NCBI GenBank assembly: GCA_018062765.1
Contig: JAGORR010000001.1
Span: 78,638 to 142,637 of the forward strand
DNA from: Minisyncoccota bacterium
GTDB taxonomy: Bacteria; Patescibacteriota; Minisyncoccia; Phycocordibacterales; Phycocordibacteraceae
Direction of reading: 5' to 3'
Length of the DNA: 64,000 nucleotides
The translations under genes and the position numbers were made by a program. Within the stretch, counting starts at the first letter, position 1. Every line of letters starts with the position of its first letter. A model generated the notes under the pieces. That model was not told the origin of the DNA. It did no database searches and was given only the letters and a program-made list of their open reading frames with translations. Below are positions 2,470 to 40,091 of this stretch, piece after piece.

Positions 2470-3023
2470 TCCTCGTTATCGTTTGCCGCCGCATCCCTCG
2501 CTATGCTCGCCTCTTCGGCAGCAAGCCACCTGTCATATTTCTTACGGGCTTCCCTGTCGTCGCTACGGACGGTCTGTGTTATCGCCCAAATGCTCATTGT
2601 CGACCATGGTAATACGTTCACATACGGAAGGAATTCGAGAATGCTATTGCCAGCCATGATGAATATGCGTGCCCCCATCTTATCGAGGAAGCCGACACCT
2701 ATAAGACGGAACCATGCGATAAAGACCAGTATCGATATAGCGCTTAGAGCCGCACCGATAATCCAGCCAAGCATTGCGATGCCCACTCCCACTCCCACCG
2801 AGTAGGACGCCACTAACGAGAGACTTGAGACGTAGCAGGCGACGTCTCCAGCCCACACACTCCCTGCCCAACCCTCGACCCAATATTTCGCAAAATAACA
2901 GATCAGTAGGGGCGCAAACACTACCATCAGGGCCCCTATAGTCTGAAGCATTTCAAACGTTAAAGCTACCGCGATCATCCGTATCTGACGGCCGCGCGGC
3001 ATCTTTGGTTCTGGTTTATTCAT
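2448..3023 (-). CDS. Polytopic membrane protein (about 4 TM) of the T4SS-like cluster.
   Basis: ORF with four hydrophobic segments. Its ATG overlaps the stop of the VirB4-like gene (ATGA). Confidence 0.5.
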   Translation of the reverse strand: MNKPEPKMPRGRQIRMIAVALTFEMLQTIGALMVVFAPLLICYFAKYWVEGWAGSVWAGDVACYVSSLSLVASYSVGVGVGIAMLGWIIGAALSAISILVFIAWFRLIGVGFLDKMGARIFIMAGNSILEFLPYVNVLPWSTMSIWAITQTVRSDDREARKKYDRWLAAEEASIARDAAANDNEEWAQQAA

Positions 3024-4852
3024 GGACGGCGGTCCTGGTCCGCTTCAGCAGCGAGCCGTTGTTTTTCCCGTTTGATTGAAAGAATCTGAGAAGGGTCCGA
3101 GGTGATTATCTGGTCCTCCGTGTATGAGGCGACAACCTTGATGGCAACATGCTTGAGGCCAGCAAAGAATAGCCCGTCCCCCACCCCAGCCTCTAGTAGG
3201 AGGAATTTTTCCTGGTCAGTAAGGTTGAATGTTTGCTTCAGGAGATCAATCGTCGTTGGCGACTGCTTCAAAAGAAGCTGCATGGAAGAGTTTGTGAGTA
3301 TCGGGCGCCCATATGGTGAGCGGAGGAAGTCCTCGACGTCCTGGGTAACGGTTGCGAGCCCTAAATAGTATTTACGACCGCGCTTGGCGAGACTGTAGAG
3401 GAATGACGCGGTGTCATCCGATTTCATCATCCACCAAGCCTCGTCGATGACGAGAAGACGCTTTCTCAGCTCGCGCCGTACGGCGTTCCAGATGTAGTGC
3501 GTAATGATATACATCGCAACCGGTTTCAGTTCATCCTCCATATCACGCACCGAGAAGACGATGAACTGCTTATTGATATCGATATTCGTCGGCTGATTCA
3601 GGAAGCCGGCCCAAGTACCCTTTGTGTATTTCGACAGACGCGTCACGAGGGATTCGCTTCCCTCCATCCCGGAGAGTACTGATTCGAAATCCGATAGGAG
3701 CGGTGCGTCCATCCCAGTGAAGTCGCGATTCCCGGTGATGTCCTTAAGGGCATAGGTTTCCGTAATAGCGCGATCGATGATGGCGTCCTCCTCCGGCGTG
3801 AGTCCCCCGAGCATGATGCGGAAGAGACCGACGAGGTTGATGATGACCGAACGCAATATGTCGTTTGGCTCCTCCCCTTCCCGCACGGGCGGAAGATCGA
3901 AAGGATTGATGTGATGCTCCGAGGAAAGCGAGATGTTGAAAAGGCGGCCGCCTGTTGCCTCCGCAAGGTATTCGTACTCGCGCTCAGGGTCGATGACGAT
4001 GACTTCTGTATCGAACATAAGCGAACGGAGAATTTCGAGCTTCACTGCGTAGGATTTTCCGGAGCCCGACTTCGCGAATACGACCGAGTTGTAGTTCTCT
4101 AGAGAGAATCGGTCGAAGAGGACGAGGGATGAGTTGTGGCGGTTGATGCCGTAGAGGATGCCCTTATCGGAGGTGAGGTCGTAGGAGACGAACGGGAATA
4201 GAGAAGAGAGAGGTGAGGTATTGAGTTTCGAATGGACGCCTAGCTCGTCGAGCTCCAGGGGAAGCGTTGAGCGGAAGCCCTGCTCCTGCTGGAATATCGC
4301 AGGCTTTGTGTATACGAGTTTAGCGTCGAGGATACCTCGTAATTTTCCTTCAAGATTATCGAGCTCGTCCTTACTGTCTGCGTAAATGGTTAGGTACAGT
4401 CCGACCTCAAACAAGCGCTCCTGTGCCTGCTGCAGCTGGTCCCGTAGACGCTCCAGGTCCTGGTATGAGGTATCGAGCATTGGGTCGCGCACAAGACCTT
4501 TTTGCGCGCGGTCGGCCTGCTGGCTCTCCACTTCCGCGACTTTCTTCTGGAACTGGCGAAGGATCTGGCCCGTCTCTATGGGGTGGATGAAGATGCCGAC
4601 ATCGAATACTTGGTCCAAATTAATAACCGGGGAAAACCAGTCGTCGGACAAAAACCGCGGATACGAGATGGTGTAAAAGGAGCGCGCAAACTTGGCGCCA
4701 AGCTCCAATTCCCTGCCGGTGACCTTGAGTGCTGCTGGCGCGATAGTGTCCGCCAGGTCTAAGGCTCCCTCTGCATAGATATCCTTAGGAAGCACAGACG
4801 CGATGTCTGGCGCCTCTTCTTTCTTACGGTTAAGGAAATCGAGGAGTGCCAT
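3020..4852 (-). CDS. virB4: VirB4/TrbE/PrgJ-family T4SS ATPase, C-terminal ATPase portion.
   Basis: Walker A (VVFAKSGSGKSYAV), VirB4-type Walker B (LVIDEAWWMM) and a DPEREY motif. The ORF-track start at 4894 (TTG) would translate the upstream heptamer repeat (LYAARCHLYA). Start is placed at the ATG at 4852 (MALLDFL...). Confidence 0.8.
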   Translation of the reverse strand: MALLDFLNRKKEEAPDIASVLPKDIYAEGALDLADTIAPAALKVTGRELELGAKFARSFYTISYPRFLSDDWFSPVINLDQVFDVGIFIHPIETGQILRQFQKKVAEVESQQADRAQKGLVRDPMLDTSYQDLERLRDQLQQAQERLFEVGLYLTIYADSKDELDNLEGKLRGILDAKLVYTKPAIFQQEQGFRSTLPLELDELGVHSKLNTSPLSSLFPFVSYDLTSDKGILYGINRHNSSLVLFDRFSLENYNSVVFAKSGSGKSYAVKLEILRSLMFDTEVIVIDPEREYEYLAEATGGRLFNISLSSEHHINPFDLPPVREGEEPNDILRSVIINLVGLFRIMLGGLTPEEDAIIDRAITETYALKDITGNRDFTGMDAPLLSDFESVLSGMEGSESLVTRLSKYTKGTWAGFLNQPTNIDINKQFIVFSVRDMEDELKPVAMYIITHYIWNAVRRELRKRLLVIDEAWWMMKSDDTASFLYSLAKRGRKYYLGLATVTQDVEDFLRSPYGRPILTNSSMQLLLKQSPTTIDLLKQTFNLTDQEKFLLLEAGVGDGLFFAGLKHVAIKVVASYTEDQIITSDPSQILSIKREKQRLAAEADQDRRP

Positions 4853-4858
4853 ACTAGA

Positions 4859-4893
4859 AGTAGCGTACAGGTGACAGCGTGCAGCGTACAGCA
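4859..4893. repeat. Tandem heptamer array, 5 units: AGTAGCG TACAGGT GACAGCG TGCAGCG TACAGCA. On the gene's sense strand this reads CTGTACG CTGCACG CTGTCAC CTGTACG.
   Basis: Read directly from the sequence. It ends 7 nt upstream of the virB4 C-part ATG. Confidence 0.7.
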
Positions 4894-4920
4894 AAAGCGG
4901 TGCAGGAGTGTTCAGTCTGG

Positions 4921-4941
4921 ACGCTAGCCGCTAGACGCTTC
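4921..4941. repeat. Tandem heptamer array, 3 units: ACGCTAG CCGCTAG ACGCTTC. It is in inverted orientation relative to the 4859-4893 array.
   Basis: Read directly from the sequence. It lies immediately after the stop of the VirB4 N-part ORF. Confidence 0.6.
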
Positions 4942-4944
4942 ATA

Positions 4945-5577
4945 TCATTTTGTAAGCCTTATCGGGCTATCGAGCTCGCCGATGTTGAATGAGCGGTAGA
5001 GAAGCTCGATGATTTCCTCAGTGCCTAGGGGTACTGCGCGAATACCGGCCGAGTTTATGGCGCCTGCAGCCAGGGACATGCGCTGCTCGAGCTGGATGCG
5101 ATGCTCAGCGAATGCGTCGTTCCCTTCCCCGCCAGACCCGGATGACGGAGTGCGCTGGAGGAACGCGAGCGCACTCTTCACTTCCGAACCCGAGCCAGGT
5201 GCCAAAGGAACGACGATGTAGAATGTCTTCGTCATGATGTTTGCTTGATCAGCGAACGCGCGGACGAATTCCATGTATTCGCGTACCTGTATCTTCATGA
5301 GCTCGGTTTCCTGCTTATCTGTGCGCTCCTGAAGGAGTGCTAGGTACGGCCGGATATCCATGCGGCGGGAGTGCACAACAAGCTCCACGGAAAAATCGAG
5401 CGAATTGAGGAAGGTCTGGAATCCGCCGATGACCGCCCGCTGCTCGTCGTCGGATTTCAAGGAGAAGTTCACTGATGAGCACATGAGTATGCCCCGATAC
5501 GTGCCGTCCTTAAGGATGATGACCCCATTACGGACCTCCTTTACTGGAACAAACGACTGAGATGCTTTAGGCGCCAT
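4945..5577 (-). CDS. virB4: VirB4/TrbE N-terminal domain (CagE_TrbE_VirB-like), encoded as a separate ORF.
   Basis: The motif run VPVKEVRNGVIILKDGTYRGILMCSSVNFSLKSDDEQRAV...LNSLDFSVELVV matches the conserved N-terminal region of VirB4/TrbE proteins. It lies directly upstream of the ATPase part, in a different frame. Confidence 0.6.
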   Translation of the reverse strand: MAPKASQSFVPVKEVRNGVIILKDGTYRGILMCSSVNFSLKSDDEQRAVIGGFQTFLNSLDFSVELVVHSRRMDIRPYLALLQERTDKQETELMKIQVREYMEFVRAFADQANIMTKTFYIVVPLAPGSGSEVKSALAFLQRTPSSGSGGEGNDAFAEHRIQLEQRMSLAAGAINSAGIRAVPLGTEEIIELLYRSFNIGELDSPIRLTK

Positions 5578-5986
5578 GGTTTTCTTCCTGCGTGCGGTCC
5601 TTTATATCGAGGGACCATGCTAGGTCCCGAATCTTCGAGGACGACAGCCCGAGCTTCTGGCGGGCTTCTTCTGGGGCGACGACAGCTTTGGGTGCTTCTT
5701 GCGCCTTATCCTCCTTACGCCATACGTAGAGTTTCCCGCCAAACAGGTACGACACCTGTGCCTCGACAATCTCAACGAACGGCTTGTTGTTGACGCGATA
5801 GAACGCGAGGGCGCCAGAGAGTGCGCCGACGGGAAGTGCCACGATGAGGAACCCAATCATGGGAAGGTAGGCAAACGCGATGACGCAGATACCGATGCCT
5901 CCGGCAAGGTATATGAACTGCTTCAGCGTGAATGGTCCAAATATCTTCCCTTCCACTTCGAGAAACTGCGGTACTTGGTACTCCAT
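5567..5986 (-). CDS. PrgI/VirB3-like small T4SS membrane protein.
   Basis: N-terminus MEYQVPQFLEVEGKIFGPFTLKQFIYLAGGIG fits the PrgI-family pattern (VP..L....K.FG.T.KQ), followed by a TM hairpin. It sits in the canonical position upstream of virB4. Confidence 0.55.
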   Translation of the reverse strand: MEYQVPQFLEVEGKIFGPFTLKQFIYLAGGIGICVIAFAYLPMIGFLIVALPVGALSGALAFYRVNNKPFVEIVEAQVSYLFGGKLYVWRKEDKAQEAPKAVVAPEEARQKLGLSSSKIRDLAWSLDIKDRTQEENHGA

Positions 5987-6026
5987 CGCTCTATAGTATA
6001 CCGCCCGAGCGCCGAGTTTTGCGTGG

Positions 6027-6635
6027 TTATTGTGACGTACCCTCGTCTATGGGTTCACGATACGGGTCGCGAGCATAATTTTTTGGTACAGGAGCCGGAA
6101 GTGGCGCGATAGACGCAGGTGTTGTGACTTCACGCTCTGTTCGAGGGAGGCGGGGCTCGAAGACTGCTGGAGGTGTCACCGGCTCAGGGCGCGGCGCGGG
6201 AGGAGCAACAGGAGCAGAAGTTATCACAGGTGCAAGCGGCGCGGCTGGAGCGATTGGAGCAGTGGGTGGAGGAGTGGTGCCAAGAGGTGCAGGCACGTCG
6301 GTGAGTGGCGCGCGCGCAGGCTTCCCGGCCTCGCTCCGCATCTTCTCGTGGAGGGGCTTGAATATCGCGTCATTAAGTTCCTTGGCGATGAGAGAGGCTT
6401 TCAGATTAGATATGCCCATCTGCTCCATCTCCTGTATGAGCTGTGCAGGATTGATGAATCCGGACAACATAAGTCCAATGGACTCATCCAAGTCGCCTAC
6501 GACGTCTATGTGTAACTGGTACTTTGCACCTATGCGGCGCACTGCTGGCCCTAATTCACCGCTCGCGAGGTACTCACGAACAGAAAGAGGAAGACCGCGA
6601 TATGCCCGCAAAAGTTCTTCGTGTGGAATCTTCAT
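6027..6635 (-). CDS. Hypothetical protein with a Pro-rich C-terminal half (T4SS-like cluster).
   Basis: ORF with no TM segment. The C-terminal 90 aa are PAPxP-rich. Confidence 0.45.
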   Translation of the reverse strand: MKIPHEELLRAYRGLPLSVREYLASGELGPAVRRIGAKYQLHIDVVGDLDESIGLMLSGFINPAQLIQEMEQMGISNLKASLIAKELNDAIFKPLHEKMRSEAGKPARAPLTDVPAPLGTTPPPTAPIAPAAPLAPVITSAPVAPPAPRPEPVTPPAVFEPRLPRTEREVTTPASIAPLPAPVPKNYARDPYREPIDEGTSQ

Positions 6636-6641
6636 AGAGAG

Positions 6642-8933
6642 CTATAGTCCTGCAAAATCTTTCGGAAGCCCGAACAGACCGCGATCGAAATCATTACTCG
6701 TAAGATAATTATTGATACCTTCTATTTGCTTGGCGGAAAGTACGCCCGCAGCCTTACCTCGTCGAAGTTCAGCGATAACTTCCGCAGGGTCTGAGAACTT
6801 ACCCTCCGCCATACCTCGTTGCAAGTCGACTTGCGTGAAAGAATGCACGACAGCAGGTCGGGTATAGTCTTTAGCGCTTAGTTTGACCTTTGCCTTAGGC
6901 CCAAGACCGCTCGCCTGAGTCCTGATATTCACCTGTGATGCGGCTGATCCGTCGTCTTTCTCTATTAAGACGCGTAATTTACCAAAGTCCGATGAGTCCT
7001 TAACTGCGCGGCGTTGGTCATTGGTCAAGGCCTCACTCTTTTCAAGTGCCTCCAACTGTTCGTCGGAGAATTGGCCAGCAGCAAGCGCGTCTTCGAATGT
7101 CGCCGCGTTAAGCTTCGCAAACTCTGCCATATCCTTTGATGACCAGCGTTGTACCTCCTTCTTATCGTTTGTACCAATGGCCGCCACGAGTTTTTGGAAT
7201 CGCCCGCCTGCAACTTCGTCCTTAACGCTCTGATCGACCTTGTCGGTCTTCTGAATGTCGATGAACCGTTCAGTGCTGAGGTATTTCGCCGCCTCCTGTT
7301 TATCTGCATTTTTGAGTCTTTTGACGTACTCGAACGTGTCTCCCTGGTTCAGGCTCTGCAGGGTCTTCGAATACTCTTTCTCGGCTAGCATCCGCTTTGC
7401 ATCATCAGGCGCATCTTTTATGCTCTTAAGCTGCGTGCCAAGAGTGCTGAACGTGTGATCGCGATGAACTTCATGCGCGCGATGGTCACGCGCATGTTTC
7501 TCGTCATCCAGAGAAACACCAGCTACTTTTATTTTCTCGCGCTTATCGAGCGCGGATTGGATATTGGCGTCCGTCGTCGCAAGTATCTTGCTTCCTCTAA
7601 ACGCGGCGCCTATGCCAAGGCCATTATATGCCTTATCTGCCGCCCACATTCCAGCCTTCGCGCCATACCTAAGCCCCGTATTCCCTATCGCACGAGAAGG
7701 TTTTGATATTGGAGAGAGCGCTGCGCCGGTAAGACGTCGGCTCATGCCGATGGAGAAGCTCGCGCCGACCGCACCCATCTGTTTGGCGACAATGATGGAC
7801 GCCATAAGCATTCCCATGGAGATAACGAAGCCGAGTATCATTCGGGTCGTATTGGCCCAACCGGTGCCGCTGACGAGCGCGCTGAAATCGCGACTCTGTC
7901 CGATGATGAGCTGCGGCGAGGTCATCAGCGTCACACTGATGAGGAGGAACAGGAGGACAATAGGAGCAGTCGCGCTTTGGGCGATGAGCATGTGCCACCA
8001 CTGCTTCGCGCGCCCCTCTAGGGATGGTATGACCAGTCCAACGAAGCCGAGAGGGGACAGGATCATGAGGAATATGAGTACGAGGAAGCGCGCGATGAGC
8101 ATAAACGCGAGCGCAAGCATTACGAACGTAGCGACGATGAACAGGAGCGAGCCTAGTATGAGCGCAGCGAACCAGTTGTTCTCCAGCACCGTATTCTTAA
8201 GCTGCCCCGTCTGAAGCGTAGTTGCATCATAGAAATTCTGAAGTCCGACCATCTCCATAATGGCGTTCGAGACGCCCTCATTAGATGGCGACCAGCTTTC
8301 CCCCGGATCCGCGCCGAGCGCTTGCCTGCCCTCTCCGGGCTTCACCATGACGGAGTAGAACTGATAGGCGAACACGTTGCCAACGTCGATGATGGCGCGT
8401 GCAGCGAAGAGGCTGAAATTCACGGTAACGGCGACCAGGATGAGCTTCACGAGCATCTTCTTCGCGTTGTAACTCTGTACGTCGAGTATCGTCGCGACGC
8501 CGATAGCGACGAATCCGAATATGAGCGCAATGTTACCAAGATCGCGTAGCACCCTCCATGCATCGAGTATGCCGGGCATGCTATTCACGAAATCCCCCAT
8601 CTTAACGACTGTGTAGTAGACGGACGCGTTAAGCATCACGCCGGCGACTCCGGCGAGGTACGCGAACAGGGATAGCATCTTATACCCTATGGGTCCGTAG
8701 ATATCGTCTCCGGTCGTATGACTTCCAAAATTAGCGTTCGCGTCAGGGGTCCCTGCTTGCGGGGCAGCAGGAGGAGGACGATCCGGAAGCGTCAGATCAG
8801 GGGGCGAGTCCGGGGTCACTTCAGGAGGTGGAGGTGTCTGGGCAAATGCGAGACTAGGAAGCAGGAGCGAAAGCGAAAGCAGCAGGATGATACCTGCAGC
8901 CAGCCATGTCCTACCTGATACTCGGGAAGCCAT
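6642..8933 (-). CDS. Polytopic membrane protein, VirB6/TrbL/PrgH-like by topology and position.
   Basis: Signal peptide, at least 6 TM helices in the N-terminal 400 aa, and a large hydrophilic C-terminal domain. It lies upstream of the PrgI-like and VirB4 genes. Confidence 0.45.
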   Translation of the reverse strand: MASRVSGRTWLAAGIILLLSLSLLLPSLAFAQTPPPPEVTPDSPPDLTLPDRPPPAAPQAGTPDANANFGSHTTGDDIYGPIGYKMLSLFAYLAGVAGVMLNASVYYTVVKMGDFVNSMPGILDAWRVLRDLGNIALIFGFVAIGVATILDVQSYNAKKMLVKLILVAVTVNFSLFAARAIIDVGNVFAYQFYSVMVKPGEGRQALGADPGESWSPSNEGVSNAIMEMVGLQNFYDATTLQTGQLKNTVLENNWFAALILGSLLFIVATFVMLALAFMLIARFLVLIFLMILSPLGFVGLVIPSLEGRAKQWWHMLIAQSATAPIVLLFLLISVTLMTSPQLIIGQSRDFSALVSGTGWANTTRMILGFVISMGMLMASIIVAKQMGAVGASFSIGMSRRLTGAALSPISKPSRAIGNTGLRYGAKAGMWAADKAYNGLGIGAAFRGSKILATTDANIQSALDKREKIKVAGVSLDDEKHARDHRAHEVHRDHTFSTLGTQLKSIKDAPDDAKRMLAEKEYSKTLQSLNQGDTFEYVKRLKNADKQEAAKYLSTERFIDIQKTDKVDQSVKDEVAGGRFQKLVAAIGTNDKKEVQRWSSKDMAEFAKLNAATFEDALAAGQFSDEQLEALEKSEALTNDQRRAVKDSSDFGKLRVLIEKDDGSAASQVNIRTQASGLGPKAKVKLSAKDYTRPAVVHSFTQVDLQRGMAEGKFSDPAEVIAELRRGKAAGVLSAKQIEGINNYLTSNDFDRGLFGLPKDFAGL

Positions 8934-8938
8934 ATCGG

Positions 8939-10390
8939 TTAGCTTGTCGGGGTGCAGCGCAGGGAGGAGGTGCGCAGTTCCATATATAAGGAGGCTGGCG
9001 TGCCCTCTTCAGCTGCAAGTACCCCTGCTTCAGCAACCTCTGTGACAGAAGGGGTCGCAGGATTTGTCATGAGTGCTTGGAAGTCCTGGGCGACCGTTGC
9101 GACAGCGGTGGGATTCGCGCTCGTACGTGCCTCTAGGATTTCTGTGGTGATTGCCTGTAGCGCAGCGAGCGAGACGCCGACGCGCGCGAGTGCTGCATCC
9201 GCACGTGCTTTTGCGTCCGTTGCGCGCGCCTTCTCCTCATCCGTAGATTCATCGCAAGTAAGCGTTGACGATGCTACCGCCTCTATTTTCTGCCAATCCG
9301 TCTGATACGAAGCAAGGAGGGTTACTTGTCCCTGGATACCGCTTACAAGAAGCTCGTCGACAGATCCCCCGATAGGCGTTGTGGGAGGGGTGACCGGTGT
9401 CGGCGTCCCCGGTCTGTCTATATATCCTGAGCCGCCAGAGGATCGTGAGCCAATAGAAGAAAGTCCCTGAAGCGCCTGGCTTACAAGTTGGCTAACGAGC
9501 GCGTTCACGATCTCGTTTATCTCGTCAGCGACCTGGAGGCGCTGCTGCCCACCTGCCAAGGTCTCATTGAGCTGTTTTTCGATGACGGAACCTGGCGTCT
9601 CGATGGGGGCGTCGGCGCAGAATTCTTCCCCACCCAGATTGACCGCCGGCACAGGCGCGTTAATGCGGCCATCAGCGCCTGTTGTTGTCTGTCGGTCCCT
9701 GCACTCGCCGCGCCAAGACAGAAATCCGTTACCCCATCCGAGCTCCGTTATCCGCTTGTTAAGAGACGCTTCGATGCGGCGATTGAGCTCTTCTTTGGCA
9801 TTTAGATATGCGCCATGTGGGTTGTTTGCGCGATCTCCCGTGAGTGCGAACCACCCGTCCCAGCCGCCTTCGCTAAACCGACCGCGAGTGAACTCAAGAT
9901 CGTTCTCCACAGTGTCGCGAAGGGTGTACAGCTGCTCACGAAGGAACGCGTCGCCATTAGTCGAAAGGTAGTATCCGTACGCAACCGCCTCGACGGTACC
10001 CGAGAGCGGCGTGTCCATCATCTGATCGGCGAGCTGCCCGATGAATTCTGCGGCTACCGCGTCAGCGACCCCGCGCAGGTTCTGATTAAGGTCCTGGACG
10101 AAAGCCGGAGAGCCCTCGAAACCAGAGTTTATCCAATTGACGACGCTCCGCGACATCGACTCAAGGACGGTGTTCGCAAGCTGCCAAGCGACGCCGTCGA
10201 GGACCTGGTCGATATTGAGTTCTGCAGCATTTGTACCGAGAATGGCGTTTGTCGTTGCAAGGACTGCTTTATCGAGAACGAGCTGAACACCAAATTGTGC
10301 TTCAGCGCGTTGCGGTATTGCAAAGAGCGGCAGGATGAGCGCCAGCGTGAGCGCGGATGCGGTAGAACGATACAGGAGTGTACGCATCAT
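8939..10390 (-). CDS. Secreted hypothetical protein (T4SS-like cluster).
   Basis: Signal peptide ending in the AEAQF motif. A 483-aa ORF that overlaps its upstream neighbour by 4 nt. Confidence 0.5.
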   Translation of the reverse strand: MMRTLLYRSTASALTLALILPLFAIPQRAEAQFGVQLVLDKAVLATTNAILGTNAAELNIDQVLDGVAWQLANTVLESMSRSVVNWINSGFEGSPAFVQDLNQNLRGVADAVAAEFIGQLADQMMDTPLSGTVEAVAYGYYLSTNGDAFLREQLYTLRDTVENDLEFTRGRFSEGGWDGWFALTGDRANNPHGAYLNAKEELNRRIEASLNKRITELGWGNGFLSWRGECRDRQTTTGADGRINAPVPAVNLGGEEFCADAPIETPGSVIEKQLNETLAGGQQRLQVADEINEIVNALVSQLVSQALQGLSSIGSRSSGGSGYIDRPGTPTPVTPPTTPIGGSVDELLVSGIQGQVTLLASYQTDWQKIEAVASSTLTCDESTDEEKARATDAKARADAALARVGVSLAALQAITTEILEARTSANPTAVATVAQDFQALMTNPATPSVTEVAEAGVLAAEEGTPASLYMELRTSSLRCTPTS

Positions 10391-11364
10391 AGGCTGGTTG
10401 CAGAAAGGAGTGCGTAGAACCCGGCGCCGGCACCCGTTCGCGCAGCACCCGTTGCGTCGTACGCTTTCTTCACGGCTTTGAAGCCATCGATCATGCTGCG
10501 CGCATCCTTCTCATAATTTCCAAACCCAATCATCGCGCGCACAGGATCATCAGTGAGTGAAGCCATGTCCCCAATCGTCGCTCCGAGCCGTGCGATTGCG
10601 TTCGTAAGTGACTGATGTGCGCTCGTAAGTGCTATTGGCGCAGCGACCCCTCGGAGGCCTTCTGCTATCGCAACGTAATGGTCTCCTATCCGCTTTACCT
10701 GTGCGAGCGCATTCGTATCGCTCTTGAGCACTGCGTCGCTGAAATACGTAAGCTCGCTTTCCGGGAGCGAGAGCGCGTTCTTGGCAAATGCCTGCTCAGC
10801 CCCTGCAAGGTATGAGCTAGGGGTCGCTCCCTCGCTCGCTACGAAGTCGGCAACGACGTATGCGTCATCACGCGTCGCTTCGCGGCGGATTTCGTCAACC
10901 GCGCTTACGACGAACGAGCGCAGTGCCTCAGCGGTGAGTTTCTCCCCTCCCCCGGTAGTGACGTACGTCTCGAAGAACGTGAGCGCGAATTTCTCGGTGA
11001 GGGAACCTGGTGCCGGAGTTACCCCTGGCATGCTTGCGATGATGTCGCTTCCTATAGTGCCTTCGGGCGCCTCAATCGTGGGGCGCACGAGGCCCTGGGC
11101 AAGCGCCTCGCTATCCTTGATGTCGCTCCGTACCGAAGTAGCGTCCTCCGGGTCCATCCCATACAGGAGCTCCTGCCAGTCTGGAACGCCATCGGCATCC
11201 GTATCCTTCGCGGCGTATTCTTTAAGCACCTCCTCGGTCTCCTCTGCAGATAGCGTTGGCGTTGGTGGAGCGCCGTTTTGTATGTAGTAGGCGCCTCCGA
11301 TGAGCACAATCGCGATGAGCGATGCTCCTCCTACTATCCAGTGCGTTCGTGTGACAGCAATCAC
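10387..11364 (-). CDS. Membrane-anchored protein with an EF-hand-like Ca-binding loop. First gene of the T4SS-like operon.
   Basis: N-terminal TM segment (IVGGASLIAIVLIGGAYYI) and a DTDADGVPDWQE loop. Confidence 0.5.
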   Translation of the reverse strand: MIAVTRTHWIVGGASLIAIVLIGGAYYIQNGAPPTPTLSAEETEEVLKEYAAKDTDADGVPDWQELLYGMDPEDATSVRSDIKDSEALAQGLVRPTIEAPEGTIGSDIIASMPGVTPAPGSLTEKFALTFFETYVTTGGGEKLTAEALRSFVVSAVDEIRREATRDDAYVVADFVASEGATPSSYLAGAEQAFAKNALSLPESELTYFSDAVLKSDTNALAQVKRIGDHYVAIAEGLRGVAAPIALTSAHQSLTNAIARLGATIGDMASLTDDPVRAMIGFGNYEKDARSMIDGFKAVKKAYDATGAARTGAGAGFYALLSATSL

Positions 11365-20001: not shown

Positions 20002-20511
20002 TTAGCGCGCGCCGATGAGGAAGCGCTTCGGATCCTCGCACATGTCGGTAAACGCGTGCGCGGCTTCTTTCAGTTTCCCCGACGACGACTTCCCGAACGA
20101 GATCACCTCGGTCTGTACGCCGTTCATATCAAGGAATTCGATAAGTGGTACGAAGTCACCATCGCCAGTCGCGAGGATTATCGTATCGAGCTTGTCTGAG
20201 AGTTTCACCGCGTCTATTGCGATACCCACATCCCAGTCCGCCTTCTTCGCGCCATCGGAGAAGACCTGCAGGTCCTTGACCTTGGTCTCGATGCCGATTT
20301 TGGTGAGCGCGTCGAAGAAGTTTTTCTCGTCCCCTGCCTCGGTCGAGATGACGTATGCGATAGCGCGCACCAAGGTGCGGCCTCCCACGGCCTCTTCGAG
20401 GACCTTGGCGAAGTTGACTCGCGCTTTATAAAGGTTCTTCGCGCTGTGGTACAGGTTCTGCGTATCGATGAAAACGCCGACGCGCTGAGCCGTATGTTTA
20501 ATGACTGCCAT
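20002..20511 (-). CDS. NYN-domain (LabA-like) predicted ribonuclease.
   Basis: VGVFIDTQNLY N-terminus and the TGDGDF motif. Confidence 0.7.
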   Translation of the reverse strand: MAVIKHTAQRVGVFIDTQNLYHSAKNLYKARVNFAKVLEEAVGGRTLVRAIAYVISTEAGDEKNFFDALTKIGIETKVKDLQVFSDGAKKADWDVGIAIDAVKLSDKLDTIILATGDGDFVPLIEFLDMNGVQTEVISFGKSSSGKLKEAAHAFTDMCEDPKRFLIGAR

Positions 20512-20517: not shown

Positions 20518-20545
20518 AGCTATTAGCTTCTAGCTTTGAGCTTCC
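20518..20545. repeat. (AGCTANN)x4 tandem heptamer array: AGCTATT AGCTTCT AGCTTTG AGCTTCC.
   Basis: Four AGCT cores exactly 7 bp apart, 7 nt upstream of the NYN start codon. Confidence 0.7.
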
Positions 20546-20652
20546 AGATATGAAAAAGGAAAACCCAAAAAGTTTGTAAATCGGGAACAGGCCGAGCGGC
20601 CTCCCTCTCCCATGCTACCACTGAAGCACAAAGCCCCGTTTGGGGCCTGTGA

Positions 20653-24733: not shown

Positions 24734-25462
24734 AACAATATTCTACGGCATGACCTAGCGCGCTTCCTAAATGAATTATATGATTGTGTGTATAGAACTA
24801 TGAAAGAGAAAGTTCAGCATAAGAAATACGCGACTGATTTGCGACTAGCAGGGAGCACCTATTCGGAGATACTCGCGCAAGTCCCTGTTTCGCGTGGCAC
24901 ATTATCAGCGTGGCTTAGTGATGTTCCTCTACCGGAGAACGTGGTAAAGCACCTCTCCGCCAATCGGCGAGCGAGGGTCAGTCAGGCAAGAAGAAGGGAA
25001 GCGACGGTCCGGAAAGCGGCAGCGATAGTTCGCCGCGGATTCGCTGAAAAAGGTGCAAAAAAGGAATTCGAAAGACACTCGAAGGAACCCTTTTTCCTGG
25101 CCGGTCTCGGTCTTTATCTTGGTGGCGGGACCTTTGGGAAGGCATCCTTCTCGTACATGTCCGGGGAGGAGCGCCAGATAGCGCTAATGGTCCGCTGGGC
25201 TAAGGAATACCTTGCCCACGAGAGTCGTATAGCGCTCCGACTCTATCTGCCGCCCTCCATGGACCTCGGATCTGCCCGTGTGCACTGGTCCAAGGCCACC
25301 GGGCTCCCTGCAGCAGCCTTCAAGAAGGCGGTGATGACGAAGGAAAGGGCCAGAAAACCTAGTAATTACGCGGGTATTGCCCGATTGGAGCTTACGGGTG
25401 GCAGGGCAGCGCTTCGTGTGCGCGTGTGGCTGGATATGCTTGTTGTGCGCTATGCGGAATAA
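24728..25462 (+). CDS. Hypothetical protein with an N-terminal HTH-like motif.
   Basis: STYSEILAQVPVSRGTLSAWL resembles a sigma-70-region-4/terminase-type HTH. It ends 18 nt before tRNA-Arg. The true start may be an internal ATG. Confidence 0.4.
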   Translation: MHNNILRHDLARFLNELYDCVYRTMKEKVQHKKYATDLRLAGSTYSEILAQVPVSRGTLSAWLSDVPLPENVVKHLSANRRARVSQARRREATVRKAAAIVRRGFAEKGAKKEFERHSKEPFFLAGLGLYLGGGTFGKASFSYMSGEERQIALMVRWAKEYLAHESRIALRLYLPPSMDLGSARVHWSKATGLPAAAFKKAVMTKERARKPSNYAGIARLELTGGRAALRVRVWLDMLVVRYAE

Positions 25463-25480
25463 AGCTAGTGTTTACCTCAG

Positions 25481-25552
25481 GCTCCGATAGTGAAATGGAT
25501 ATCACATCAGTCTTCGGAACTGACGTTCCAGGTTCGAATCCTGGTCGGAGCA
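25481..25552 (+). tRNA. tRNA-Arg (anticodon TCG), no encoded CCA.
   Basis: Cloverleaf read manually: acceptor GCTCCGA/TCGGAGC, anticodon stem TCAGT/ACTGA, loop CTTCGGA, T-arm CCAGG TTCGAAT CCTGG. Confidence 0.85.
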
Positions 25553-25726
25553 CAGAAAGCAGCAAACCCGAGCTTACGCTTGGGTTTGCTGCTTTCTGGC
25601 TCAAGGCCAGGATTCGAAAGACGGAGTCGGTATACAAGCGAGCGAAGCGAGGCTTGAGACGATGAAAGCTGCCGGGGGTCGCTTTCATGGGTCGCGGAAA
25701 TCCCGCGTAGAGGGATTATCCGTGAC

Positions 25727-25746
25727 CGAATCCTGGTCGGAGCACA
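25727..25746 (+). repeat. 20-nt direct repeat of the tRNA-Arg 3' end (CGAATCCTGGTCGGAGCACA). The first copy is 25535-25554.
   Basis: Exact 20/20 match. It is preceded by GTGAC and is not part of a foldable tRNA. Confidence 0.75.
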
Positions 25747-25792
25747 CTAAGAATTGAAGAAAAGGCATAGCTATGGGAATATAGAGCCCGTA

Positions 25793-25863
25793 GCGGCTAT
25801 GGTTTAGTGGTAGAACGCGTCCTTGCCAAGGACGAGTCGGGAGTTCGATTCTCCCTAGCCGCA
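25793..25863 (+). tRNA. tRNA-Gly (anticodon GCC), no encoded CCA.
   Basis: Acceptor GCGGCTA/TAGCCGC, anticodon stem CGTCC/GGACG, loop TTGCCAA, T-arm GGGAG TTCGATT CTCCC. Confidence 0.85.
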
Positions 25864-25970
25864 CTAAGAAAAGCGAAGCTTTGCGTGTACAGACGAGGGA
25901 GGATCGAAGGCCGGAGCGCGGCGGCGCGAGGCGAGGTCGCGGCCATTTTCAGAAGAAAATGAGCTGTGAC

Positions 25971-25989
25971 CGATTCTCCCTAGCCGCAC
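25971..25989 (+). repeat. 19-nt direct repeat of the tRNA-Gly 3' end (CGATTCTCCCTAGCCGCAC). The first copy is 25846-25864.
   Basis: Exact match, again preceded by GTGAC. Confidence 0.75.
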
Positions 25990-25996
25990 CAGAGCG

Positions 25997-26025
25997 AAAA
26001 GCGCCCGGAAGGGCGCTTTTCGTTT
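25997..26025 (+). terminator. Rho-independent terminator (GCGCCC ggaa GGGCGC followed by a T-run) closing the tRNA locus.
   Basis: Hairpin plus TTTTCGTTT. Confidence 0.55.
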
Positions 26026-26085
26026 ATAGACAATAGGGGATAACTACCTACCTCTCCCTTGAACGCATAATTTCTAGGCCATTTC

Positions 26086-26114
26086 TTGGTGTTGACTTCA
26101 TGAAATGGTATAAT
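26086..26114 (+). promoter_or_regulatory. Sigma-70-like promoter with an extended -10 (TTGGTG-17-TGgTATAAT). An alternative -35 TTGACT sits 11 nt upstream.
   Basis: TGGTATAAT at 26106-26114. There is no ORF with a plausible start downstream for about 600 nt. Confidence 0.45.
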
Positions 26115-26552
26115 CCTAGAGCCTCGCAAGGGGTGGCAGGTATGGTCAGGTATCGGGACGAAAGTCGTTGCGTAAGCACAGCTCTAGTGGTCGGTACTTG
26201 TAAGGTCGAAAGACCTCGAGTACCTGCCAGTGGAGCTGTTTTCGTGGGCCCGCGGAACCAGTTTGAGCCCTCCACGGGTTAGCGATGAACCTGCACCTCG
26301 AATTTCGCGGTGTCGCTGGTCGACAAGATACCAGCATCGTAATCTTGGTCAAAACATGACTAAGACGATTACGAGGAGCGCGAAGACAGGTCGCTTCGTA
26401 CCGGCAAGGCAGGCGATCACTCGCCCCGCTACGACGGTACGGGAGACAATCTTCGTCCCTCGCAAAAAGAAGTAAGCCCCCTAGCTAAACGCTAGAGAGC
26501 TTGCTTCGTAAGGAAGCAAAAGCGCTCACAGCAGGTGTGGGTGCTTTTGCTT

Positions 26553-26578
26553 AAGGACATGGTACCACAGGTGTCCTT
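26553..26578. repeat. Inverted repeat AAGGACA-N12-TGTCCTT (a TAAAGGACA-family motif).
   Basis: Read directly. Same core as the 22847-22921 and 28497-28509 copies. Confidence 0.55.
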
Positions 26579-26759
26579 TAGACCACCAACCACACCGATA
26601 GGCAGGGGATAATCATGTAATTTATCCCTAGAAAGCATAATCGATTGAATAAAATCAAAGGATCTCAGGAATATTATCGGCTTATGCAAGGCACATTTTA
26701 TCGCTGTCCACACCTGCATTGTACGTTCACGGAATAAGGTGTAGCGTTGAAGTAAAGAT

Positions 26760-27371
26760 ATGAAGCGGTACGCATTTATAGATGTCGAAAATACGGCCAC
26801 GACAGCCGAAGATATGCTTGGCTTTGTCGTTGATTGGTCAAAAGTGGCTGATTTCCTCAAGAATGTGAAAAGTTGTACAGAAGTGTTCTACTACACGGCT
26901 ATAGAGACTGGTGATGCCCAGAAGGCGGCAGAGTTCGAGGCGATCGATAAAACTGCCTGCTGCGTTGTTAGGGCGAAACAAAAGATGCTCTATAAGCGTA
27001 AGGACAAGTATCTTTCTTTCACGTGCTCAAAGTGCGGGGAACCCGGCAATAAAAGCATTGACATGGGGTACAACGTCAAAGGTAACTGCGATGTTGAATT
27101 AACGGTGGATGCTCTCGAGCATGGAGAGAAAGATAACGAATTTTACATATTCACGGGCGACGGTGATTTCGAGTACCTAGCTATAAAGCTTATGGAGCGG
27201 GGCGTTAAGGTCGTGTTTGTTTCTCACGCAAAAGTGATTCAGAGGGCTGGTCAGCCCTATGGACGGTATTCAAAAAAGCTTAGAGATCTTGTTGCTGCCA
27301 ACCCGACCCACCTCTCTTTCCAAGAACTAGATAATTGGAAGAAGAAATTTGAGCGCGTAATTGTGCCGTAA
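26760..27371 (+). CDS. NYN-domain protein with an inserted Cys4 zinc ribbon, in a lower-GC context.
   Basis: MKRYAFIDVEN N-terminus, TGDGDFEYLAIKL motif and CSKCG...C insert. AT-richer codon usage than the surrounding genes. Confidence 0.65.
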   Translation: MKRYAFIDVENTATTAEDMLGFVVDWSKVADFLKNVKSCTEVFYYTAIETGDAQKAAEFEAIDKTACCVVRAKQKMLYKRKDKYLSFTCSKCGEPGNKSIDMGYNVKGNCDVELTVDALEHGEKDNEFYIFTGDGDFEYLAIKLMERGVKVVFVSHAKVIQRAGQPYGRYSKKLRDLVAANPTHLSFQELDNWKKKFERVIVP

Positions 27372-27562
27372 ATACGCCGTATAAATACGAAAACGCCGCG
27401 AAGCGCGGCGCCTTCTAAGGACTCCCTCAGTATACTCAGGACCCATGAGGTGTCAATTAAGGGTCAAGGGGTCTTTCTAATAACCTGTTGATAGCTGATT
27501 TAAGAAGAATTTAAGATAGTTTCAAGTATAATTTTCACAAATGGATCAACCCGAGTTTCTTT

Positions 27563-28450
27563 CTATACTTTCGAGAGCAATACGGTTCCGAGGAGCGCAG
27601 AAAACCGCTGACTGTCGCTGTGTCGGTTGTTCCAATGGAACGAATACGCATCTAGATACCCCTGAAGGTGTCGCTTCGACACCACCTTATACGTCCCCCG
27701 AAGAGAGCGCTTCACGTGCGCCCAATACGCCTCAATAGTGTTTATGTAGATTGGGCCTCGCGCCCATTCTTTCTTTGAGTGATTCACCATGTATCGCTCG
27801 TAGCCTATAGCTACATTGTCTAGGGTCTTAGTAGCGTCAGTCATGAGCGCGGTGCCTTCCTCCTCAACGTTTTCCCGAAGAAACCGGCCGTGGGTATCTG
27901 CGCCTATGTCGGGTACGACCTTGGTGCGTACCTCGCCGTTTCGCTGTACCGCGCCTATAACCGGGGACTTAGCCCTAATGTTCCTGCTCTGGTGCATATT
28001 GTCCTTCCCGCCGTCACCCTTGCCGCCCATATAGGTGCTATCCACCTCGACAACCCCCGACAGCTTCTTGGGAGTCTGTTTCCCGAGGGATTCGCGGATC
28101 AGTTTCAGCATTCGCCACGCCGTCTTATAGGTCACTTCAAGCTGTCGCTCCATCTCCTTAGCTGAAATGCCGCTCTTGGCGTTAGAAAAGACCCACAGGG
28201 CATGGAACCAGAGGGAAAGGGGAGTATCTGACTTATGGAAGATCGTGCCTGCTGTAGGGGCTATCTGGAACCTACACTTGGAGCATTGATACTGTTTCCG
28301 GCCTGAAATGCGCCTGTAGGTACCACCACAGGAGCACTCCCGGCTGTGGAGGGAATCGAAAATGAAGTCCAGACAGACCGCGTCGGTCGGGAAATCACGT
28401 TTTAGGGAAGATAGGCCGTATTTACTCATTATTCTCACTCTATCGGACAT
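27563..28450 (-). mobile_element. IS1595-family (ISXO2-like) DDE transposase gene.
   Basis: N-terminal zinc ribbon (CSCGG...CSKC), HTH and a DDE domain with the typical IS1595 C-terminus. Lower GC. No convincing terminal inverted repeats were located. Confidence 0.75.
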
Positions 28451-28496
28451 GGATTATGTTGTCAAGGGATATCGGGGGATAACTAAGGGGACATGT

Positions 28497-28509
28497 GGAT
28501 AAAGGACAG
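28497..28509. repeat. GGATAAAGGACAG copy of the TAAAGGACA motif.
   Basis: Identical 13-mer to 22909-22921. It lies just outside the transposase start. Confidence 0.55.
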
Positions 28510-28577
28510 CGTCCAAGATGAACGGATTATGATGAGTCTTAAGAAAAGCTAGTAAATAAGCCGTTTTTCTAAACTCC

Positions 28578-28973
28578 ATGAATCTCGAGAAGGCCACAAA
28601 GAAGGAAATCGGTGATTATGGTGAAAGGGCCGTCGTCCGAGAGCTCGAGAGGAATGGCTACAGGCTAGTTGGTAGGAATATCGCACGAAAGACAGGAGAA
28701 ATAGACGTGCTAATGCGAAAGAGCGATACCCTCCACTTTATCGAAGTTAAGGCGCTCTCATGTGAGGAGTTGCCGGATCTTGAAGCGGTAAACGATCGCT
28801 ATGACCCCTCTGCAAACCTTCATGAGGCGAAGGTACGAAAAGTCGCCCGGACAGCTGAGTGGATAGTCGCAGAAAAGGAGTGGGAAGGGGATTGGCAGGT
28901 TGATGGCGCCCTAGTATGGCTCCGGCTGCGCGATGGAGTCGCCAAGGTCCTCCATCTGCCGCAAATCGTCTAG
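28578..28973 (+). CDS. yraN: YraN/UPF0102-family predicted endonuclease.
   Basis: GDYGERAVVRELERNGYRLVGRN...GEIDVLMRK...FIEVKA. Confidence 0.7.
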   Translation: MNLEKATKKEIGDYGERAVVRELERNGYRLVGRNIARKTGEIDVLMRKSDTLHFIEVKALSCEELPDLEAVNDRYDPSANLHEAKVRKVARTAEWIVAEKEWEGDWQVDGALVWLRLRDGVAKVLHLPQIV

Positions 28974-29074
28974 CAATGCTAGGATGGCCCATATAGGACG
29001 TTGGCCTATGTGTATGGGCGGTGAGCTAGGGTCATTATGTGCCGGAGTAGCTTGGGTGGGTTAAATCATTTGGT

Positions 29075-29148
29075 CGGGCCGTCGTATACCGGTAGTACGC
29101 TTGGTTTGGGACCAAGATGACCGGGTTCGATTCCCGGCGGCCCGACCA
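29075..29148 (+). tRNA. tRNA-Pro (anticodon TGG) with encoded CCA.
   Basis: Acceptor CGGGCCG/CGGCCCG, D-arm GTAT/GTAC, anticodon stem CTTGG/CCAAG, loop TTTGGGA, T-arm CCGGG TTCGATT CCCGG, then ACCA. Flanked by the inverted repeat 29061-29081 / 29138-29158. Confidence 0.85.
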
Positions 29149-29305
29149 AATGATTTAACGGCTCTCTGGGAGAGAGCCAAGGTCCGGAGGAAAGATGACC
29201 GGGACGACCCCTTACAGGGGCGGTATACCTTTCGGATATTTTGCATCGCAAGCTCGCAAATTATCTCGAAAGGTCTTGCGAACGCTCCAAGCATTCGCGT
29301 TCTCA

Positions 29306-33679: not shown

Positions 33680-33696
33680 CCCTCAGGTTCCACGCT

Positions 33697-33734
33697 AACA
33701 AGCCGCGACTCAAAGAGAGTCGCGGCTTGTTTCG
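33697..33734 (+). terminator. Rho-independent terminator (13-bp stem CAAGCCGCGACTC/GAGTCGCGGCTTG).
   Basis: Hairpin plus TTTCGC. Confidence 0.55.
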
Positions 33735-33818
33735 CAACTAGGCAATGAATAGTTGCGGGGCACGCACGTTTTGATAGGGTCAGGATAGAAACCAACGTAC
33801 CTGCAAAAGGAGGCAACA

Positions 33819-35863: not shown

Positions 35864-35946
35864 ACCTCAAGTATAGCTGCATACCCTAAAGCAGAGCGGC
35901 CGCCCTGTGGGCGGCCGCTCTGGAACGACACACTACACTCGACTCG

Positions 35947-36219
35947 CTACTTCACTGCATCCTTAAGGCCCTTTGCGGGGCGGAACTTCGGCGTGCGGGT
36001 AGCGGCGATGCGGATAGTCTCTCCAGTGCGCGGATTGCGACCCTCGCGCGCGGGGCGCGCCTTCGTGACGAAGATGCCGAGCCCTGCGATAGAAACCTCG
36101 TCGCCCTTTGCAAGCGAGCTCGTGATGGAGTCGATGATGGTTTCCATCGCGCGCTCCGCATCGGCCTTGGTGGAGCCCAAGACCTCCTGCACCTTCCCGA
36201 CGATGTCTGCTTTGTTCAT
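35947..36219 (-). CDS. hup: HU-family DNA-binding protein.
   Basis: MNKADIVGKV...GLGIFVTKARPAREGRNPRTGETI. Start trimmed to the MNKAD ATG. Confidence 0.85.
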   Translation of the reverse strand: MNKADIVGKVQEVLGSTKADAERAMETIIDSITSSLAKGDEVSIAGLGIFVTKARPAREGRNPRTGETIRIAATRTPKFRPAKGLKDAVK

Positions 36220-40051: not shown

Positions 40052-40056
40052 ATGAA

Positions 40057-40091
40057 TACAGGGTACAGCGTACAGGTTACAGCGTACAGTG
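40057..40091. repeat. Five perfect-phase tandem heptamers: TACAGGG TACAGCG TACAGGT TACAGCG TACAGTG.
   Basis: Read directly. On the sense strand it ends 5 nt before the ATG of the small membrane protein. Confidence 0.75.

Follow-up and report, generated by a model that had tools for sequence, protein, structure and literature searches.

The intergenic spacers of a Minisyncoccota bacterium (assembly GCA_018062765.1, contig JAGORR010000001.1, positions 78,638–142,637; this 64,000-nucleotide stretch is referred to here as the window) contain three arrays in which the tetranucleotide AGCT occurs four times at exact 7-bp intervals. The explanation that we favor, and to which we give about an even chance, is that these arrays are one subtype of a family of lineage-specific, dispersed, degenerate heptad repeats (KWAYAGC, or GCTRTWM in reverse) that have been inserted at junctions between co-directional genes. 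The arrays are neither a stop-codon signal nor a methylation site. The evidence comes from the heptad shared by these and other arrays of the window, from their placement between genes, from the orthologous junctions of relatives, and from the similarity of array copies to one another.

Results

Three AGCT Arrays

Re-reading of the window sequence located the arrays exactly where the original prediction had placed them: at 20518–20545 (AGCTATT AGCTTCT AGCTTTG AGCTTCC), at 40132–40159 (AGCTAAA AGCTAGA AGCTGTA AGCTATT), and at 60742–60769 (AGCTATC AGCTACT AGCTACG AGCTTTA). The pattern AGCT-N3 repeated four times has these three matches in the window and none in 100 dinucleotide-preserving shuffles; a distance of 7 between one AGCT and another was seen 10 times, as against 1–5 times for each of the neighboring spacings. 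Identical array sequences are found in independent Logan assemblies and in a metagenome-assembled genome (MAG) from NCBI, thus the arrays are not assembly artefacts; no variation in unit number was detected, the three assemblies being identical. The degenerate copy that had been proposed at 26483–26501 proved to be out of phase, with AGCT followed after 7 nt by CGCT and after a further 8 nt by AGCT, and was missed by a profile built on the three AGCT arrays.

The gene contexts first assigned to the arrays (NYN, ppa, and rpsL/rpsG) stood overall, with small corrections; our own gene calls agree with those on public contigs, and the neighboring genes were identified by Pfam. The NYN-domain gene (PF01936) is on the minus strand (20002–20511), downstream of rpsO, and the 20518 array precedes its ATG (20509–20511, minus strand) by 6 nt. 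A putative extended −10 element, TGGTAGCAT, is located at 20612–20620 (minus strand) and has a counterpart, TGGTATCAT, in a relative (L018) whose spacer is array-free; because this conserved −10-like element is upstream of the array, the array would lie within the NYN 5′ untranslated region (5′UTR). The ppa gene is also on the minus strand (40155–40673), and its stop codon (CTA on the plus strand, 40155–40157) overlaps the last AGCT of the 40132 array; downstream of ppa, this array serves as the 5′ arm in a composite element. At the third locus the rpsL TAG (60741–60743) overlaps the first AGCT of the array, which fills the 38-nt rpsL–rpsG spacer, its final heptad ending 12 nt before the rpsG ATG (60782); the junction reads rpsL TAG...AAATACAAGAAAT-ATG rpsG and lacks a Shine-Dalgarno (SD) site. 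Two of the AGCT copies are sense-oriented after a stop codon (CAAAATAGCT...), and the third, at 20518, is inverted relative to transcription.

A Degenerate Heptad Shared With Other Arrays

When the window was scanned for periodicity without reference to any core sequence, 7 was the sole enriched period that is not a multiple of 3, and six arrays of at least four units were recovered. The pattern AGC-N4 repeated three times gave 19 matches at nine distinct places, as against about one expected by chance; one of these places (18820) is inside a gene and is probably a chance match. In all, ten arrays of 4–5 units each occupy seven intergenic gaps. A matrix of 46 phased units defined the shared heptad K-W-A-Y-A-G-C (reverse, GCTRTWM), in which A is found at position 5 in 45 of the 46 units, G at position 6 in every unit, and C at position 7 in 35, with position 1 being G in 24 units, T in 15, and A in 7. 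Only 2–4 of the 7 positions of a unit are fixed, and the mean pairwise identity of the spacers is 0.33–0.44. AGCT arises when heptad position 1, next to AGC in phase, is T, so that AGCT is a subtype only; the view of AGCT as an essential palindrome is not supported, since the invariant part of the unit is AG(C). The accompanying suggestion, that the AGCT arrays and a nearby TACAGNN array have one underlying cause, was borne out to the extent that they form one family, linked by a common heptad, cross-pairing arms, and homologous copies.

The TACAGNN array is the 3′ arm of the ppa composite: five units at 40057–40091 (TACAGNN on the plus strand and CTGTANN on the gene strand, which is the minus strand) that end 5 nt before the ATG (40049–40051) of a 51-aa gene. 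Between the two arms is a 13-bp hairpin (40098–40126, minus strand) followed by GUUUUCC; it is terminator-like, but its U tract is too weak for the criterion applied in scanning for terminators. On the other side of ppa, five heptads of subtype II (40678–40712, minus strand; CTGTACG CCGCACG CTGTCAG CTATACG CTATCTC) lie in the 43-nt nusA–ppa spacer and end 4 nt before the ppa ATG, in the order nusA TAA-TCCC-five heptads-TTAT-ATG ppa. The gap at 4848–4950 contains five heptads at 4858–4892 (minus strand; GCTGTAC GCTGCAC GCTGTCA CCTGTAC GCTACTT on the gene strand), upstream of the ATG (4850–4852) of a VirB4/TraG-like ATPase gene, and a 5′ arm at 4916–4943 (minus strand; ATGAAGC GTCTAGC GGCTAGC GTCCAGA on the gene strand) whose first codon is a coupled ATG (TGAtATG). 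Two further loci are on the plus strand. At 48400–48434, five heptads (GAGCAGC GAGCAGC GAAAAGT GTACAGC GACTAGG) separate a coupled ATG (48393) from the start codon of a prepilin-like gene (ATG, 48438), with a partner arm at 48459–48472 (GCTATAC GCTTTCG). The 112-nt gap after the stop codon at 49056–49058 holds a 5′ arm at 49067–49101 (GGAAAGC GTTTAGC GTAGAGC GTAGAGC ATGTAGG) and a 3′ arm at 49120–49147 (TCTATAC GCTATAC GCTATCA GCTAGAC), the latter separated by 23 nt from the start codon that follows (ATG, 49171). A weak period-7 run at 35925–35951 (minus strand; AGCGAGT CGAGTGT AGTGTGT), between the stop codon of the HU gene and a terminator hairpin, may be a decayed member of the heptad family.

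Placement in Co-directional Junctions

All gaps that bear arrays are co-directional: among gaps of at least 25 nt, arrays are present in 7 of 22 co-directional gaps and in none of the 9 divergent or 8 convergent gaps (Fisher P ~0.01, co-directional vs. the 17 others). In these gaps the arrays fill the space from stop to start, and the start-proximal array ends 4–23 nt before the ATG in seven of seven. No GGAGG-like SD site was found at any of the seven, whereas genes elsewhere in the window have either GGAGG sites (canonical in gaps 33680–33818 and 50590–50630) or a −10-like TGnTAnAAT 6–8 nt before the ATG; such extended −10-like elements, TGnTAnAAT or TATACT, are found at that distance in gaps 51099–51148, 53713–53755, 58228–58281, and 5987–6026. 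The short −10-to-ATG distance suggests leaderless mRNAs, and three classes of start site seem to coexist in the window. The genes that arrays precede or adjoin include rpsG, ppa, NYN, the VirB4/TraG-like ATPase gene, and pilin-like genes, which have no shared theme; a link to the stop codons of highly expressed genes, as had been proposed, is not supported, with other copies preceding the NYN RNase, VirB4/TraG-like ATPase, and pilin-like genes.

In three gaps an ancestral coupled ATG (TGAtATG) has been retained upstream of the arrays, at 48393, 49060, and 4943. For 48393 and 49060 the frame of the coupled ATG is the sole one that stays open across the arrays and leads on into the conserved protein: the first gives MERAASSEKCTATRNMTTASSAAIRFRAG followed by FTLIE, a lengthened prepilin leader, and the second adds a basic tail of 37 codons at the N terminus. 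At 4943–4854 (minus strand) the coupled ATG instead begins a mini-open reading frame of 29 codons, TGAtATG...TAGtATG, which ends at the next gene. Public gene calls take the downstream ATGs in all three cases (48393–48440, 49060–49173, and 4943–4850 on the minus strand). Several other roles for the arrays were considered and rejected. As promoters they are not supported, as the array gaps contain no sigma-70-like sites and hand inspection revealed no −10 element at leaderless distance; the offsets from last heptad to ATG (2, 2, 4, 4, 5, and 5) are inconsistent with a fixed phase; and a 'frame trap' of stop codons in three frames is not consistent across arrays.

Array-Free Junctions in Relatives

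Relatives were found with the S7 protein and comprise 80 at the species level (62–97% identity), all of them MAGs of Kaiserbacteria, Paceibacterota, or Parcubacteria (individual relatives and contigs are given by L numbers). A protein identical to the S7 of the window is annotated on a 638-kb contig of an NCBI 'Candidatus Pacebacteria' MAG. Not one of the 80 has an AGCT array in the rpsL–rpsG spacer, which is usually 2–40 nt long and is 5 nt in the closest relative (L003; 97% S7 identity). The junctions corresponding to 48392 and 49059 are TAGcATG or TAGtATG in L206 (83% aa identity) and L207 (77%), and no arrays were found at these junctions in L204 (85% aa identity); none were found in relatives L003, L204, L206, and L207. 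Across the nearest relatives (82–97% protein identity) the orthologous junctions are array-free and often consist of a stop codon, 1 nt, and ATG. In 1.2 Mb of sequence from the 80 relatives there are seven AGC triplets of period 7, which is chance level, vs. 19 in the 64-kb window. Because the orthologous junctions are array-free, the comparison shows the arrays to be lineage-specific insertions into junctions that are 1–50 nt long in the nearest relatives. The abutment of arrays on stop codons is then a by-product of insertion into very tight junctions (1–10 nt in relatives), as would be expected of any insertion there, and the stop-codon linkage initially proposed loses its force.

Some relatives have other repeats in comparable places. 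In L005, L010, L014, L064, and L065, the rpsL–rpsG spacer contains period-8 tandem arrays of ATTTAAAN, with the palindromic core TTTAAA, just upstream of the S7 start (~9957–10000 in L005 and L065); this is a different repeat at the same junction in a subclade of Kaiserbacteria. The tuf spacer of L065 (15548–15634) is arranged as tuf TAG-[NNNNAAG]x4-AU-rich loop-[CTTANNN]x4-ATG, with a fold z of −2.9, and shares the architecture of stop, arm, loop, arm, and start with another core (TAAG/CTTA).

Similarity Among Array Copies

The leaders of the VirB4-like gene and of ppa are identical at 35 of 42 positions up to the ATG and have the same order of variant units; their alignment score is 49, as compared with a shuffled maximum of 22. 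Over ~89 nt, the composite at 48392 can be aligned with that at 49059 (score 43), and the three AGCT arrays are pairwise identical at 26 of 30, 25 of 29, and 21 of 24 positions. These alignments show several of the arrays to be homologous dispersed copies. Perfect adjacent duplicates (AGCGTAG twice, CTATACG twice, and GAGCAGC twice) indicate recent duplication of 7 nt. The poor identity of units in general makes present-day slippage or phase variation unlikely. The copies were not assigned to miniature inverted-repeat transposable elements, as the centers of three composites are unrelated, nor to a phage or other mobile source, as a 20-mer from the subtype II leader had no viral match.

Pairing of Array Arms

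In three gaps the stop codon is followed by an AG-type arm and the next start is preceded by its CU-type complement, and a fourth inverted pair is probably present at 48400; the order is the same in all four, with AG-type 5′ and CU-type 3′. Duplexes of the arms are better than those of shuffled arms (P ≤ 0.01). The predicted fold of the ppa composite (40045–40165; z = −4.4 vs. shuffles) is a single long hairpin with interruptions that holds the stop codon at its base and ends ~12 nt before the next ATG; the fold z for paired arms elsewhere is −1.8, but +0.5 for the gap at 4848–4950. Searches of Rfam with the window and metagenome examples gave no match to an array at the gathering threshold or at E ≤ 1, the only returns being spurious miRNA-like hairpins.

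Other Features of the Window

The region from 25400 to 29200 is a low-GC island (GC 0.485 at 26–28 kb). Of the four tRNA genes in the window, three surround it (Arg and Gly at 25481–25864 and Pro at 29075). The genes of the island include an IS1595-family transposase (27563–28450), a second NYN-domain protein (26760–27371), and a UPF0102/NERD nuclease-like protein (28578–28973). A type IV secretion system (T4SS)-like cluster occupies positions 1–11364 and encodes a T4SS pilin-like protein, a PrgI-like protein, the VirB4/TraG-like ATPase, and large proteins without a Pfam match; a type IV pilus set (T2SSE, T2SSF, and prepilin-like genes) is found at 43532–50589. Within the gene at 42354–43331 (minus strand), a 27/54-nt tandem repeat detected by TRF at 42750–42985 corresponds to RTX calcium-binding nonapeptides (Pfam HemolysinCabind). 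The 235-nt region upstream of rpsL (60101–60335) contains terminator-like hairpins, including those at 60246–60268 and 60305–60321, and may be an S12 leader or attenuator.

Discussion

Origin and Persistence of the Arrays

If the arrays are inserted heptad repeats, they would have originated by replication slippage of 7 nt together with copying or template switching between arrays, and the self-complementary cores (AGCT, GTAC, and AGCG/CGCT) would favor slippage and copying or template switching alike. The arrays would be transcribed as intercistronic spacers, 5′UTRs, or N-terminal leader codons, and would persist because translation of the downstream gene stays unbroken. Paired arms would form a long interrupted hairpin whose base holds the upstream stop codon and which ends 4–16 nt before the next start, a geometry that would keep stop and start spatially close; in three gaps the ancestral coupled ATG is kept with its frame open through the arrays, and an open frame could likewise preserve translation of the downstream gene. 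Any function would be secondary, either as REP-like stem-loops that act on mRNA ends or decay, or as an SD-less leader.

Several observations weigh against this explanation. The strict conservation of AG(C) amid free spacers is the one feature that slippage and copying leave unexplained: in the three AGCT copies the core positions never vary, whereas 10 of 12 spacer columns do. Slippage would yield identical units, so invariant cores disfavor pure slippage, and invariant cores with variable spacers point instead to purifying selection on the cores, that is, to a sequence-specific function. With the cores removed, 13 of 27 internal spacer positions agree among the three AGCT arrays, and their similarity, cores aside, is only suggestive. 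No copying or mobilizing enzyme was identified in the window, where the sole transposase is of the IS1595 type, and the flanking 9.6 kb of the same genome has no arrays, a stretch too short to be informative (P ~0.2). Folds of single arrays are no more stable than those of shuffled sequences (z from −0.2 to +1.3), which limits the hairpin argument to paired arms; partner arms pair no better than arms from other loci, thus complementarity is a property of the family and is not specific to pairs; and fold energies show no asymmetry between sense and antisense, thus an RNA-level role is not demonstrated.

The main rival, for which the invariance of the cores speaks, is a periodic RNA-binding array: an oligomeric RNA-binding protein or an RNase (such as NYN or RNase Y) would read NAG(C) every 7 nt in 5′UTRs and intercistronic RNA, its binding would regulate entry at the neighboring start or unfold the hairpin alongside, and the complementary 3′ arm would serve as an anti-array. 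We consider this unlikely, with a modest chance of being correct. It would account for AG at period 7 in practically every unit while the spacers are free, for cores that are kept where copies differ in their spacers, for arrays of 4–5 units that end 4–12 nt before SD-less starts, and for the constant order of AG-type and CU-type arms; every array is in a co-directional and presumably transcribed gap, one is in the inferred 5′UTR downstream of the conserved −10 element, an array before an NYN RNase gene could permit autoregulation, and HutP offers a precedent with three XAG motifs, 4-nt spacers, and sites on both sides of a terminator stem (PMC2425495). However, Pfam revealed no HutP, TRAP, or other ring-protein candidate among the ~57 window proteins; the genes concerned (rpsG, ppa, NYN, T4SS ATPase, and pilins) have no common theme; the start-proximal arrays present CU rather than AG on the mRNA; the 20518 copy is inverted, relative to transcription, as compared with the other two AGCT arrays; relatives keep the same genes, including NYN, without arrays; and the folds show no strand asymmetry. 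A lineage-specific post-transcriptional code, in which AG(C) at 7-nt steps along mRNA leaders and intercistronic RNA is recognized by a protein and the CU arms are anti-arrays, has in our estimate a rather small chance. Were it true, arrays would couple or uncouple the translation of neighboring genes in a genome largely without SD sites, the candidate readers would be a ring-forming or multi-domain RNA binder or an RNase such as the NYN protein, which has an array in its own inferred 5′UTR, and other lineages would have invented the same logic independently in their TAAG/CTTA, TTTAAA, TAACTGA, and TTTTGAA arrays.

A role for the arrays on DNA, as operators or centromere-like arrays for ribbon-helix-helix (RHH)-type dimers bound to adjoining units of 7 bp, each with a 4-nt palindrome as its core, is improbable. 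Palindromic cores (AGCT and GTAC) at a period of 7 bp, exactly four cores in each AGCT array, the use of both orientations, and the absence of fold asymmetry between strands all suit such a system, as do the period-8 arrays with TTTAAA palindromes in the rpsL–rpsG spacer of relatives and the precedent of omega/ParB, which has heptads in mixed orientation and a minimum of four units (PMC9499535). The placement nevertheless speaks against it: the nine divergent, promoter-bearing gaps have no arrays, the array gaps have no sigma-70-like promoter, the NYN array is downstream of the conserved −10-like element, and some arrays are inside probable N-terminal coding sequence; Pfam found no RHH or ParA/ParB-Ib gene among the ~57 window proteins. 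An AGCT-specific signal, either at the stop codons of highly expressed genes or for an AluI-type methyltransferase or restriction system, is very improbable. Two of the three AGCT arrays do overlap a TAG stop (rpsL and ppa), but this follows simply from insertion into short junctions, the remaining array is found ahead of a start codon and on the opposite strand, and family members with AGCG or CAGG cores flank unrelated genes. The idea of methylation or restriction at AGCT also finds no footing in the window, where AGCT is at expectation (261 observed vs. 252 expected, ratio 1.04) and the Pfam scan of the ~57 proteins revealed no DNA methyltransferase. Among other 4-bp sites, GATC is strongly under-represented in the window (155 vs. 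327 expected, ratio 0.47), the remaining 4-bp palindromes having ratios of 0.81–1.13. Chance clustering of a common tetranucleotide has a negligible probability, for although AGCT is frequent, with its 261 copies in 64 kb, the shuffles never reproduced four phased copies, AGC-N4 triplets are far above their expected number, and spacing 7 is in excess.

Implications

In the start-codon heptamers known from other bacteria, whose function is unknown, identical units hide which positions matter; the degenerate case described here, in an uncultured Kaiserbacteria lineage of the Candidate Phyla Radiation (CPR), separates the constrained positions (AG or AGC, and phase) from the free ones. The arrays of the window are moreover seen as recent insertions into junctions of stop, 1 nt, and start, spread as copies and arranged as complementary pairs of arms. 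If a factor reads the conserved cores, the small size of this genome should make the search for it tractable; if there is no such factor, the case documents how the compact operons of reduced genomes absorb repeats while translational coupling is retained. A practical consequence is that start-codon calls at array junctions differ between gene callers.

Comparison With Known Systems

Cyanobacterial short tandemly repeated repetitive (STRR) sequences are related heptamer repeats. Heptamers of the TAACTGA type, the closest described counterpart of the window arrays, are present in marine Beggiatoaceae, some cyanobacteria, and Bacteroidetes, in sets of 2–6 that are mostly intergenic and ~1 nt before starts that mostly lack a ribosome-binding site; they are found inside ribosomal protein operons, close relatives lack them, and no function is known for them (MacGregor 2015, PMC4679880). 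In Nostoc PCC 7120, heptamer repeats near start codons are reported to affect expression (bioRxiv 10.1101/2022.06.06.494920). The window arrays resemble the TAACTGA type in their tandem 7-nt units, in the recurrence of a genome-specific unit at many loci (judged here on 64 kb plus 9.6 kb of genome), in being nearly all intergenic and close to SD-less starts, also in ribosomal protein operons, in the absence of a functional theme among the downstream genes, and in a sporadic distribution with close relatives lacking them. They differ in that TAACTGA units are identical whereas those of the window are degenerate, with only AG(C) and a biased position 1 fixed; in their self-complementary cores and their frequent inverted pairs of arms with a hairpin in between (inversion is seen only once in BOGUAY); in copies that are recognizably homologous, with the same order of variant units; and in their host, a CPR/Patescibacteria genome of ~1 Mb.

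Heptanucleotides are the commonest class of long simple sequence repeats (SSRs) in prokaryotes, and slippage has been proposed for them, according to the account of Mrazek (2007) relayed in PMC4679880. Such long SSRs (PMC4679880, PMC4692102) are like the window arrays in having period 7, in being tandem and mostly non-coding, and in containing perfect two-unit duplicates, but database matches consist mostly of near-identical units, whereas the window spacers are essentially random (identity 0.33–0.44). Among the metagenome matches listed for four phased AGCT cores, ~19 of 120 loci reach the degeneracy of the window arrays; the matches listed come from unrelated organisms (GC 0.36–0.68), many are near-perfect heptamer microsatellites, and several abut start codons or SD sites. 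TACAGNN repeated four times was found in 55 viral contigs, nearly all as perfect SSRs. A Mu-like prophage (L128, SDBT01023793.1; Gam, GemA, holin, and amidase) has four near-identical intercistronic composites (~15–100, 6200–6290, 6745–6850, and 7690–7800; z = −6.5) with the arrangement stop-[AGCTCAT]n-small hairpin-[ATGAGCT]n-SD-ATG. A metagenome contig with a GC of 0.67 (L175, ~120–215) has inverted arms, CTGACAG... and GCTGCAC GCTGCAA GCTGTCA GCTGTAA (GCTGYAA), directly before an ATG, and its units closely resemble the window heptads despite the unrelated host.

Repetitive extragenic palindromic (REP) sequences and bacterial interspersed mosaic elements (BIMEs) are short, species-specific, dispersed repeats of transcribed extragenic regions that form stem-loops. 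Like them, the window elements are 30–110 nt long and lie between co-directional genes or after stop codons, with none in divergent promoter gaps; unlike them, they have an internal 7-nt periodicity, their copies share heptad cores only or 60–85% identity, their single arrays are weak hairpins, and no REP-associated tyrosine transposase (RAYT) was seen in the window.

Regulators that read short phased motifs are a further point of comparison. TRAP reads (G/U)AG repeats, and MetJ binds tandem 8-bp met boxes. HutP recognizes XAG motifs in sets of three, spaced by 4 nt and flanking a terminator stem on both sides (PMC2425495), and omega/ParB of pSM19035 requires at least four contiguous 7-bp heptads, direct or inverted (PMC9499535). 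As with HutP and TRAP, the AG-type arms of the window have NAG triplets at a fixed short spacing (period 7 in HutP), and arrays lie beside a terminator-like hairpin or a start codon, but the start-proximal arms read CU on the mRNA, the second arm being the complement, there are 4–5 units as opposed to 3+3 or 11, and many unrelated genes are involved. As with omega/ParB (7 bp) and MetJ (8 bp), the units are short and contiguous, here 7 bp long, at least four to an array and in direct or inverted orientation, with palindromic cores that suit dimeric binders, but unlike omega/ParB sites they are not at a promoter or par locus, none are in divergent gaps, and some are in coding leaders. HutP may thus be regarded as the functional analog at the RNA level and omega/ParB as that at the DNA level, each by analogy and each missing at least one defining feature. 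What is new here relative to the known heptamer repeats is the combination of degenerate units, self-complementary cores, frequent inverted arms, and dispersal by copying.

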